Assembly: GCA_019429125.1 (NCBI GenBank)
Contig: JAHYJO010000017.1
Span: 1 to 22,084, forward strand
Source: Nanobdellati archaeon
Lineage (GTDB): Archaea; EX4484-52; GLR71
Length of the DNA: 22,084 bases
Direction of reading: 5' to 3'
The position numbers and the translations under genes were made by a program. Below, in pieces: positions 4,791-7,911 of the stretch. Numbering within the stretch: the first letter of the stretch is position 1; every line of letters starts with the position of its first letter. The notes under the pieces were generated by a model, which ran no database searches, was not told where the DNA came from, and saw only the letters and a program-made list of their open reading frames with translations.

Positions 4791-5267
4791 ATGCTTGAAA
4801 ATCTTATCAACATATTAAACCTCCAAAATCCTTGGATTATCCTAGCAATCCTTGCAATGGCACCAATTACAGAAGCCAGAGGCGCAATCATCTACGGTCT
4901 ATCCCAAAATCTTAATCCCTTAAACGTATTCATTATCTCTATAACCTTAAACACATTAGCAATCATACCGCTTTTATACATCCTAAGACTGAAACAAATA
5001 ATGACATTTATACACAAGATAATAGGAAAACGAATAACAAATATTATTGAAAAAAACAAAAAAAGATTTGAATTGTATGAAGAGTTGGCGCTATTTAGTT
5101 TTGTTGCAATTCCCGCAATTGGAACCGGTGCCTGGACTGGCGCATTAATTGCAACTATCTTAAAAATTGACATGAGAAAATCTTTTTATATCATAACCGC
5201 CGGCATCTTTGCAGCTGCACTGATTGTCTTTTTAGGCACTAACAGCATATTTTTCCTTCTTAAATGA
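4791..5267 (+). CDS. COG2426 / small multi-drug export family membrane protein
   Basis: Motifs AMAPITEARGAI and FVAIPAIGTGAWTGALIA; multiple hydrophobic helices. Confidence 0.85.
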   Translation: MLENLINILNLQNPWIILAILAMAPITEARGAIIYGLSQNLNPLNVFIISITLNTLAIIPLLYILRLKQIMTFIHKIIGKRITNIIEKNKKRFELYEELALFSFVAIPAIGTGAWTGALIATILKIDMRKSFYIITAGIFAAALIVFLGTNSIFFLLK

Positions 5268-5289
5268 AATAATTAGAATCACAGTTTAA

Positions 5290-5457
5290 GGCACTGTCCA
5301 AAAAGTGAGTACTCTTGAATATTTTTTAAATATTGTTTGTTTATAAACTCCTACAGAGACTCATTTAATATACACATTTCACGTCTAATTACAAAAGAAA
5401 TAAAGGTATTTAATTAACTACATTTTGTTTGAAATCACTCAAAAAATGAACTGTGCC
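5290..5457. mobile_element. MITE family B (168 bp), IS1595-like ends
   Basis: Left end GGCACTGTCCAAAAAGTGAGT vs right end (revcomp) GGCACAGTTCATTTTTTGAGT. Flanked by CAGTTTAA (5282-5289) and CAGTTTAC (5458-5465), an 8-bp duplication with one mismatch. Confidence 0.7.
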
Positions 5458-5497
5458 CAGTTTACAAAAACTTTATATCTATATTAATTTCAATAGT

Positions 5498-5592
5498 ATT
5501 ATGAAACTTGTAAATACTTGTCTAGCGTGATGAGGTTCAAGAGTTCCTGCGCATTGACCCGTAATTATGAAACTTGTAAATACTTGTCTAGC
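5498..5592. repeat. Repeat-spacer-repeat unit: perfect 29-bp direct repeat around a 37-bp insert (CRISPR-like geometry)
   Basis: ATTATGAAACTTGTAAATACTTGTCTAGC at 5498-5526 and 5564-5592. Insert GTGATGAGGTTCAAGAGTTCCTGCGCATTGACCCGTA (5527-5563, 19/37 GC). Confidence 0.9.
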
Positions 5593-5995
5593 CGGAATCA
5601 ATTGTAAATGAAATGGCAAAGCAAAACCTTGTCAAAAAGTTATTGAATTAGTTAAACAAGGTAAAGCAATTCCAGTCTGCCCTGAACAATTAGGTAGATT
5701 AACAACTCCCCGAGATGTAGCAGAACAAAAAGGTGATAAGATATTTACAAAAGATGGATATAACTTAACTTTTCAATTTGAAAAAGGCGCAGAAGAAGGA
5801 CTAAAAATCGCAAAACTTGCAAATTGTACTGAAACCATTCTAAAAGCAAATTCACTGTCTTGCGGTTCCGGTAAAGTTTTTGATGGAACTTTCTCAGGTA
5901 ATTTAACAGCATGCGACGGAATATTCACAAAACTTCTCAAAAAAAATAATATCAAAGTATTCACAGAAGATGAAATTAACAATAAAGCGCAATAA
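5567..5995 (+). pseudogene. DUF523 / TudS (2-thiouracil desulfidase)-like pseudogene
   Basis: Hand translation MKLVNTCLAGINCK*NGK...PVCPEQLGRLTTPR...ILKANSLSCGSGKVFDGTFSG... matches the family motifs VSACL.G..C, VCPE..GGL..PR and SPSCG. In-frame TGA at codon 15. Confidence 0.85.
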
Positions 5996-6039: not shown

Positions 6040-6420
6040 ATGAAACTACTTTTTATTTGTCAAGGAAACTCGGAAAGAAGCGTAATTGCCCAAGAACTTT
6101 ACAACAAACATTCTAACTCAACAGATTCTCAAAGCGCAGGCCTAAACGTTTCAGATTTACCAAGAACAGAATTGATGTTTAAACTGATGAAATCCGAAAA
6201 CATAGATATCACAGATAAACCAAAAACTCAACTGACAGAAGACATGCTAACTAAAGTAGATAAAGTAATAGTCCTTTGTTCAAAAGACAAATGCCCAAAT
6301 TACCTATTAAACTCTGAAAAAGTATCGTTCTGGGATATACCAAATCCCTGGAACCAAAATTATGAATTCTTATTACAAACCAAAAAATTGATTAAAGAAC
6401 ATCTAAATAGTCTCCTTTGA
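6040..6420 (+). CDS. Low-molecular-weight phosphatase / thioredoxin-type arsenate reductase family protein
   Basis: P-loop LFICQGNSERS, SAG motif, VIVLC, WDIPNP. Confidence 0.85.
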   Translation: MKLLFICQGNSERSVIAQELYNKHSNSTDSQSAGLNVSDLPRTELMFKLMKSENIDITDKPKTQLTEDMLTKVDKVIVLCSKDKCPNYLLNSEKVSFWDIPNPWNQNYEFLLQTKKLIKEHLNSLL

Positions 6421-6506
6421 AAACCATATTTGTCTATTAAACAAATATTATTTCACCCAACCCTAAACAACTCCATATACTCTTCTTATTCTTGCAATTG
6501 ACCTGA

Positions 6507-7911
6507 AGACCCTCCAGTTAAGATAATCCCTTTTAAAGCAATCTCTTTTTTAACGAAGACCTAATTCGACTTATCAACAGTTAACTATATATACTCCAAC
6601 TTCGAATGGCTCATGGTAAAAGCGATAACAGTGGAGTATTCAGCTGGTGTTTATATAAAACAAACATTAACTGAATTGACACAAAATAGTTGTACGCTCT
6701 TTGAGTATCTTGCACATTTAGATATATCGGAGCTTGAAGATTATGTTCTAAAAAAATATTATCTTCGAACACCAACACACCGTGTTGGTACAATGATAAG
6801 ATTGGCTAATACATATTATTTCTATGATTGTGGATATGAAAAAATATTAAGGTCCTTATCAGAATTTAATCAAAAAATATTGAAATTGAAAACGATTCCG
6901 TCAGTTTCAACACTTAATGATTTTGTTCATCTGCGATTGAGCGAACAAGGTTTTGATGATATTATGATTTATGTCGCAAAAAGTCTAAATAAGTATGTCA
7001 CAAAACGAAATGGTAATCTTGATTCAACACCGAACGAAGCTGAAAAGTATGACAAACATGCAAAATTTAACCCACATTATGAATGCAAAATGTATAAATC
7101 ACATATTGTTATGATTGATAAAATACCACTAATTATGACATTTAGTAATGGTCTTGCAAATGATTCTCCATACCTGAAACCACTTGCATATAAACTGCAT
7201 GATGCTAGCATAACTTTTGATCTGATGAATCTTGATGGTGGTTATGATTCATTTGAAAATCATGCGTTAGTAAAGCATGTTATTGGTGCTGACCCGTATA
7301 TTGGATTACCTATAAATGCAGTTCAAAATGAGGATGGAACAGTAGACAGAATCAAACATTTTTGCAATAAGCTATGGAAACAAGGTGGGTCAAAATACAA
7401 GACTATTGAAGAACAGCTTCAATTTCTATTTGAAAACGATAGAATAGAACAAGTTGGTGCATATTATAGAAATATCAACCATTTAAATATGCCAAAAGAG
7501 ATTACAGCTTTGCTTTCCCGACAGGAACGCATACACGCACACATGAAAATCACTGTTAAATTCGATGTGCGTAAACGTAAAAATTCAAAAAAGGGATTGC
7601 ATATAAAAGCTGCATTCGTATCATATCAATTGTTGTGTTTATGTGCTCTTCAAAATGATATGAATCCAAATCAATTTGAATTTATACAATAAAAATAGTT
7701 TTTAATCCCTAAAACGGGTTTTTGCCTAGCTTGTGCTATGTTTTGAGTTCTAGATTCCTTTGATTTTTCTCAAAATAGTAATATGTTTAATAAATAATTA
7801 TGTGATAAAATTGATTTTTTGATGAATTTGTTAATATTTTTGAAAATTTAATCAATTTAAAAAAATAGCATCCAATTAAGGATTGCAAAATTGGGCTTAA
7901 CTGGATGAGTT
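6507..7911 (+). mobile_element. Insertion sequence (~1.4 kb) with DDE transposase
   Basis: Imperfect TIRs AGACCCTCCAGTTAAG (6507-6522) and CTTAACTGGATGAGTT (7896-7911), 12/16, enclosing the transposase. No clear target duplication, so ends are uncertain by a few bp. Confidence 0.75.
6613..7692 (+). CDS. DDE transposase (IS4/IS5-superfamily type)
   Basis: IPSVSTL, LDST, LDGGYDS and ERIHAHMK give an intact D-D-E triad. Confidence 0.88.
   Translation: MVKAITVEYSAGVYIKQTLTELTQNSCTLFEYLAHLDISELEDYVLKKYYLRTPTHRVGTMIRLANTYYFYDCGYEKILRSLSEFNQKILKLKTIPSVSTLNDFVHLRLSEQGFDDIMIYVAKSLNKYVTKRNGNLDSTPNEAEKYDKHAKFNPHYECKMYKSHIVMIDKIPLIMTFSNGLANDSPYLKPLAYKLHDASITFDLMNLDGGYDSFENHALVKHVIGADPYIGLPINAVQNEDGTVDRIKHFCNKLWKQGGSKYKTIEEQLQFLFENDRIEQVGAYYRNINHLNMPKEITALLSRQERIHAHMKITVKFDVRKRKNSKKGLHIKAAFVSYQLLCLCALQNDMNPNQFEFIQ

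Follow-up and report, generated by a model that had tools for sequence, protein, structure and literature searches.

The start of the DUF523 gene in the genome of a small archaeon raises the question of how a perfect duplication of ordinary gene sequence came to enclose a short stretch of DNA that occurs nowhere else in the same genome. The window analyzed here (22,084 nt) is one entire 22-kb contig of the genome G000, which comprises 1,158,795 nt in 32 contigs with 34% G+C and 93.5% completeness. Its source is a DPANN-type archaeon with a small genome of the symbiotic type, as is that of the related genome G008. Within the window, identical 29-mers (100%) occupy positions 5498-5526 and 5564-5592, 66 nt apart from start to start, and a 37-nt insert lies between them at 5527-5563. 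An earlier reading of the sequence alone had described this arrangement and had proposed that it was a natural off-target integration of a CRISPR spacer, and our verification of the coordinates and of the identity established that the duplication around the insert is real. With up to 3 mismatches allowed, the 29-mer matches the window twice, and not one match arose in 100 shuffles. Searches of all 1,158,795 nt of G000, allowing up to 6 substitutions, returned no further copies of the 29-mer or of the 37-mer, so that the absence of the insert elsewhere in the window, formerly judged by eye, holds genome-wide. The 51% GC reported for the insert was likewise reproduced; at 0.51 its G+C content falls within the top 4.6% of G000 37-mers, which is unusual for this genome but not extreme. 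Translation of the insert also gave the described frame, DEVQEFLRIDP, followed by a stop. None of the 19 window ORFs scanned is a cas gene, in agreement with the sequence-only reading, and windows 5200-5700 and 6350-7100 gave no Rfam matches.

The two copies of the 29-nt target stand in different relations to the gene. The first (5498-5526) holds the DUF523 start codon that is nearer to the promoter, ATG 5501-5503, and the second (5564-5592) begins the reading frame itself, with its ATG at 5567. This plus-strand ORF (5567-5995) belongs to the DUF523 / 2-thiouracil desulfurase family (PF04463, E 9.7e-36). The AT-rich box that had been noticed upstream of the duplication was found as a TATA-box-like element, TTTATATC, at 5472-5479 of the plus strand, and it probably serves as the promoter. 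It stands 22 nt from the first ATG and now 88 nt from the gene's own ATG; the A/T-rich boxes of DUF523 homologues are spaced from their ATG similarly to the former. As had also been recognized, the insertion gives rise to a 9-codon decoy mini-ORF on the plus strand (5501-5530), in which the frame from ATG 5501 reads MKLVNTCLA and then meets TGA TGA. DUF523 keeps a complete start copy, now placed 66 nt further from the promoter and behind the decoy ORF, and this displacement may affect its expression.

The gene also carries an in-frame TGA at 5609-5611, a position occupied by TGG in G008 and by TGG, TAC, TAT or CGA in the homologues. This codon is an apparent nonsense change because the organism reads TGA as stop, and the window ORF appears to be a pseudogene; a sequencing error or read-through are the alternatives. 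A genetic code with TGA as a sense codon, under which the 66-nt insertion would be an in-frame extension, was ruled out since other genes end at TGA. Table 11 leaves the long G000 ORFs intact, and under table 25 several of them merely extend past a TGA. Both window copies read AAT ACT where G008 reads AGT GCT and most of the homologues displayed have AGT or AGC followed by GCN, and from these codons it had been argued that the insertion post-dates the decay of the gene. That order of events may or may not hold: G008 has an intact DUF523 gene with the same insertion arrangement upstream. Because G008 combines this arrangement with an intact gene, the insertion alone is no proof that DUF523 was inactivated.

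The sequence-only reading had regarded the structure as a lone fossil and had suggested a genome scan for other duplications of about 29 bp with inserts of about 37 bp. A first scan of G000 sought exact seeds recurring 30-120 nt apart, and a stricter scan applied a 28-nt window with at least 25 matches at offsets of 35-130, retaining loci that repeat at one offset only. Two more such structures (hereafter scars) were present in G000, one at G000:C17:49369 (duplication of 32 nt, insert of 33 nt) and one at G000:C27:34764 (duplication of 32 nt, insert of 34 nt), giving units of 65 and 66 nt; under the stricter scan, 3 of the 5 isolated repeat loci fell at offsets 65-66. G008, which represents another genus of the same family, was scanned whole (15 contigs, 1,078,986 nt), and 13 of its 21 loci fell at offsets 64-67, that is, at 4 of the 96 offsets covered. 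Two more G008 loci are multi-unit with an identical insert. One follows the pattern A-X-A-X-A (G008:C7:26561-26723, three copies of 29 nt with two identical 38-nt inserts), and the other has four A and three X (G008:C11:189465-189691, four copies of a 32-nt stretch with three identical 33-nt inserts); each could be a scar amplified by slippage or an unrelated 65-67-nt tandem repeat. Partial samples of three other genomes gave 0 of 8 loci at 64-67 in 314 kb of G010, which is Cas1-positive, 0 of 2 in 234 kb of G001, a genome of the same genus as G000 in which Cas1 was not found, and 1 of 2 in 272 kb of G016, which belongs to another family and in which Cas1 was not found (28 nt duplicated and 36 nt inserted). 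With three scars in G000, 13 plus the two multi-unit loci in G008 and one in G016, the lone fossil was not upheld. Spread within the family is known from G000, G008 and the 234 kb of G001.

The 19 events of G000, G008 and G016 (at least 17 single and 2 multi-unit) are confined to a narrow range of sizes, with unit lengths of 64 nt in four, 65 in four, 66 in eight and 67 in three. Apparent duplications measure 27-33 nt in 18 of the 19 events and 37 nt in one, and inserts measure 33-39 nt in 18 and 27 nt in one. The exceptional values belong to a single outlier at G008:C10:61344-61444, in which a 37-nt duplication and a 27-nt insert make a unit of 64 nt that disrupts a 133-aa ORF; chance extension does not account for the long duplication. 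The inserts share no sequence with one another. Most scars are intergenic or lie at gene ends, and the 66-nt scars within ORFs preserve the frame, a placement that is what purifying selection would leave. Since 13 of the 15 duplicate pairs in G008 are perfect, the activity appears to have been recent in lineages without visible cas genes.

Other direct repeats of different dimensions were encountered in the sampled genomes. In G010, the loci L252, L257-L263 and L265 are clustered occurrences of an element about 125 nt long and rich in palindromes (GGTTAACGGGAAG ... CTTCCCGTTAACC), which is found in many places with a spacing of 119-130 nt. In G001, isolated direct repeats of 25 and 51 nt, 119 and 113 nt apart, occur at L274:5431 and L282:10576 and enclose related hairpin-rich inserts (…CTGGCTTCAGAAAGCCAG…), one of them beside a tRNA-like stretch as judged by eye; they represent a small insertion element of another kind, whose target duplications are long.

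Comparison with relatives established that the scars are true insertions accompanied by a repeat-length target duplication, as had been proposed for the window. The target of the C17 scar is single-copy and lacks the insert in the congener G007, the target of the C27 scar is single-copy in G003 and G007, and in 13 of the 13 DUF523 homologues displayed the A/T-rich promoter box leads directly into the ATG. Tandem duplication of native sequence was ruled out by the same relatives without the structure and by the flanks, which never repeat the insert. The C27 region also contains a 1.4-kb insertion (G000:C27:33311-34840) with a putative AAA-ATPase-like gene (462 aa, minus strand), located between the 3' end of an apparent tRNA-synthetase gene and a downstream 456-aa gene and bordered by a 64-nt direct repeat that is 94% identical. 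The flanking genes are adjacent in G003 and G007, and G006 has a different insertion there with a 43-nt repeat.

Transposons and miniature elements also insert with a direct duplication of their target, as the scars do, and one such element lies close to the window scar. A 168-nt MITE at 5290-5457 separates the DUF523 promoter from the gene upstream; it has terminal inverted repeats (GGCACTGT... / ...ACAGTGCC), gave no Rfam match and is absent from this position in G008. Its target duplication, CAGTTTA, is found at 5282-5288 and 5458-5464, and blastn returned 37 matches in G000, including partial copies, at about 76-95% identity, as well as matches at 73% in G006 and G007. Whereas the MITE duplicates 7 nt and carries terminal inverted repeats, the scars duplicate 27-33 nt around unrelated inserts. 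The scars do not fit transposable element insertion, given the uniqueness of the window insert in G000, the lack of shared sequence among inserts and the duplication of about 30 nt. On the other side of the locus, the window ORF at 6613-7692 (359 aa) has a weak match to IS5-family transposases (E 1.7e-4, far below the cut-off). Window positions 6507-6977, which include the 5' part of this ORF, are 93% identical to G008:C4:240-710 in inverted orientation, where the genome-wide level is 67-76%; 6507-7692 is probably a mobile element common to G000 and G008 beside the DUF523 locus.

Alignment of the scar borders revealed a preference at the target. The trinucleotide (C/G)CT immediately precedes the 5' end of the duplication on one of the strands at 9 of 18 sites against an expectation of 0.031 per site (binomial P 9e-10, a generous value because the motif was picked after viewing the sites). 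At other border shifts the motif was met at 0-1 sites, except for 3 at shift +1. Among the 10 sites that could be oriented, A12 is present in 9, and A8 as well as a G or C at position 31 in 8 each; 7 of the 10 oriented inserts begin with C or T followed by A (P 4e-4). The duplication opens with G at only 11 of 32 borders. At the window site itself the corresponding minus-strand flank (5593-5595) is CCG and not (C/G)CT, while G008 has CCT in this position; judged from the flank motif, the window unit would be oriented on the minus strand.

One insert could be traced to its source. The 34-nt insert at G008:C11:226014-225981, read on the reverse strand, is an exact copy of the ORF-internal sequence at C11:38047-38080, 188 kb away, and the identity ends at both borders of the insert (225981-226014). 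It is the only one of the 19 inserts with an exact source in its own chromosome, and the remaining inserts have no second copies in G000 or G008. Exact searches of viral contigs with eight inserts and of metagenome contigs with the window 37-mer returned no match, blastn of the 37-mer against phages and plasmids gave chance-level matches only (E 0.5 or more), the 42 related genomes contained no match to it when up to 3 mismatches were allowed, and none of the inserts matched in roughly 1.45 Mb of further loci. The viral, plasmid or metagenomic protospacer anticipated for the 37-mer was therefore not recovered in these collections.

The dimensions of the scars are those of the CRISPR arrays of the same order. 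G010 encodes cas6-cas7-cas5-cas3-cas4-cas1-cas2 adjoining an array with a 30-nt repeat, whose 19 periods measure 66 nt (11), 67 (4), 68 (3) and 69 (1), and G022 has an array with a 30-nt repeat and periods of 65-68. These type I-B loci, with 30-nt repeats, 35-39-nt spacers and periods of 65-69 nt, are close to the 64-67-nt units of the scars. They differ from the scars in having many spacers, one conserved repeat, adjacent cas genes and leaders that end in CGG rather than CCT (in G010 and G022), while the 'repeat' of a scar differs at each site, is local sequence and lacks cas genes. Pseudo-repeats and the CRISPR repeats of the order show weak resemblances by eye. The match of repeat and spacer lengths that the sequence-only reading looked for thus exists in the arrays of relatives but not in G000, where no array was found. 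With one spacer and no cas6/cas7/cas5/cas3 homologues in G000, the window locus is not a functional CRISPR array.

Nor was an adaptation gene recovered from the organism itself, where the same reading had looked for one. Pfam Cas1 gave no matches in G000 and G008, and Pfam Cas2 gave none in G000, G008 and G016. Cas1 scored above the cut-off in 8 of 42 genomes of the order, only outside family f1, to which G000 and G008 belong; the nine other genomes of that family contained no Cas1 above the cut-off, with one weak match of 17.5 bits in G004. Seven Cas1 proteins of the order (that of G010 and six obtained via phmmer) were combined into a local profile, which was run together with the Cas2 and Cas4 of G010 against the G000 and G008 ORFs of at least 40 aa; the best E was 0.31. 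Proteins of the relatives' cas operons gave no cas match in G000 by tblastn, including cas6, cas7, cas5 and cas3, and no multi-spacer arrays were found in G000 or G008. G000 and G008 are both about 93% complete, and the absence of cas genes from them falls short of proof; metagenome-assembled genomes of this completeness easily miss cas islands, and cas islands and arrays are often missed. Solo Cas4-family PD-(D/E)XK nucleases are encoded at G000:C13:11215-11832, directly upstream of a HerA-type helicase gene, and at G008:C10:5674-6861. These were ruled out as an adaptation module on account of their neighbours, which are HerA or unrelated genes, with no cas1/cas2 nearby.

We consider it fairly probable that the structure at 5498-5592 and its kin arose by ectopic integration through a Cas1-Cas2-type integrase whose gene has been lost, was left unbinned, resides on a mobile element or acts in trans from outside. 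A short double-stranded DNA fragment, here of 37 nt, would be joined into two opposite-strand nicks about 29-30 nt apart, and gap filling would duplicate the 29 nt between the nicks, leaving a pseudo-repeat, a spacer and a pseudo-repeat. The enzyme would most likely be of the kind that serves the 30-nt-repeat type I-B arrays of the order, acting at sites with (C/G)CT just beyond one border. The proposal of ectopic spacer acquisition is strengthened by the lengths, by the signatures of target and insert and by the one self protospacer, and it is weakened by the failure to find Cas1 in G000. Also counting against a Cas1-Cas2 origin are the failure to find an integrase or array in G008, the perfect state of 13 of the 15 G008 pairs, the 0 scars in 314 kb of the Cas1-positive G010, the CGG leader ends, the low frequency of G1 (11 of 32 borders), the event of 37 plus 27 nt and the lack of a foreign protospacer.

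The leading alternative is a Cas1-independent native route in which an integrase or break repair inserts 33-39-nt fragments at staggered breaks of about 30 nt, so that the likeness to CRISPR adaptation would reflect convergence or distant ancestry. It would explain why most duplications are perfect although G000, G008 and G016 have no cas1/cas2, why 13+2 scars occupy a cas-less genome of 1.08 Mb when 314 kb of a Cas1-positive relative has none, and why the flank motif is unlike the leader ends of the order's arrays. Set against it, the scars have the period of the local CRISPR arrays as their unit, their CCT border and A12 are reminiscent of a characterized Cas1-Cas2 preference, and a cas island is easily missed at 93% completeness. 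We know of no other enzyme class that produces target duplications of about 30 nt together with spacer-sized inserts, and we regard such a route as rather doubtful.

The DUF523 site bears on a further alternative. In G008 the start codon of the gene lies within that genome's own 29-mer, present twice with borders identical to those of the window, and the three substitutions that separate the G008 29-mer from the window 29-mer are all present in both G008 copies. The G008 insert is 36 nt long, A/T-rich and unrelated to the window 37-mer. Identity between G000 and G008 is 67-76% at alignable genes and 81% at DUF523, and an old event inherited by both genera without turnover is excluded by the unrelated inserts. 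The site either received independent hits in the two genera or is a unit that was re-used with loss of the old spacer, and it is accordingly either a hot spot or a re-used unit. Among DUF523 relatives (67 genome and 67 metagenome loci), a repeat at the gene start was found in G008 only and is absent in 133 of 134.

The same borders in two genera, the different inserts and the homogeneity of the copies within each genome would also suit a maintained functional element with spacer turnover, either an orphan mini-array or a regulatory leader with a decoy ORF. The G008 gene behind the unit is intact, and its decoy ORF appears, from the sequence by eye, to stop 2 nt before the true ATG. Such a role is nevertheless quite improbable: two different spacers were seen together at 0 of 18 loci, the remaining scars are scattered over unrelated places, for the most part between genes or at the ends of genes, cas6 and an effector for the use of crRNA are lacking, the window gene carries a nonsense codon, and all but one of the DUF523-relative loci searched lack the unit. 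An assembly or library artefact is the least credible origin, for although every genome is a metagenome assembly, the scars come from three separate assemblies (G000, G008 and G016), two of which are occupied at the same orthologous site. The sites also have a motif in common and vary little in size, the duplications span 27-37 nt rather than one k-mer size, and the partial samples of two other assemblies contain no scar.

Ectopic integration by Cas1-Cas2, the reading that we favor, has precedents in characterized systems. According to papers that cite Nivala, Shipman and Church (2018, Nat Microbiol), off-target integration by the E. coli Cas1-Cas2 creates 'neo-CRISPR' units as rarer events under over-production of Cas1-Cas2; one of them, a preprint, credits the same authors with circumstantial natural evidence in two other species. 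The scars resemble these units in placing a spacer-sized insert between repeat-length genomic duplications, which results in a one-spacer pseudo-array. The E. coli events, as described there, followed over-expression of Cas1-Cas2 in a host with arrays, whereas the scars are natural, fixed and as frequent as 15 per megabase, occur in genomes without detected cas1, cas2 or array, and include one site used in two genera.

A second precedent concerns the choice of target. In the study by Grainy et al. (2019, PMC6698737), the P. furiosus Cas1-Cas2 in vitro makes paired opposite-strand integrations 30-31 bp apart at non-CRISPR sites, with a critical junction 5'-CCCT|GTTA, enrichment of leader C-3 and repeat A12, and G/C 30 bp apart. 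The scars show some resemblance to the sites described there in the CCT border and A12, with the border motif picked after the sites had been viewed and with CCG at the window's own site. That study used plasmid targets in vitro and recorded a strong preference for G1, unlike the 11 of 32 borders with G1 in the scars. A literature search with reach into few subscription journals returned no report of such genome-wide scars in DPANN archaea or elsewhere. The kind of event is already known from the off-target 'neo-CRISPR' integration in E. coli, as the citing papers describe it; new are the number of events, their occurrence in genomes without visible adaptation genes, the target rule, the self-derived insert and the site shared by two genera.

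Laboratory work has demonstrated ectopic spacer integration, and the natural cases so far, as represented in the sources available, are circumstantial and limited to two species. If the present scars are confirmed on sequencing reads, isolated perfect repeats of about 30 nt spaced 64-67 nt apart would provide a signature for annotation, direct tests would become feasible of how CRISPR arrays originate and of what adaptation costs a tiny genome, and the question would arise of where the integrase comes from. A bolder interpretation, which we put forward only tentatively and think unlikely, is that cas-less DPANN archaea keep receiving spacer-sized DNA from an integrase that their own chromosome does not encode or that is not Cas1 at all; a Cas1-Cas2 source could then be a mobile element, a virus or the attached host cell. 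If true, these archaea would carry a natural stock of proto-CRISPR units, governed by a defined (C/G)CT target rule and with hot spots that can be re-used, and would offer a live picture of how a CRISPR array originates.
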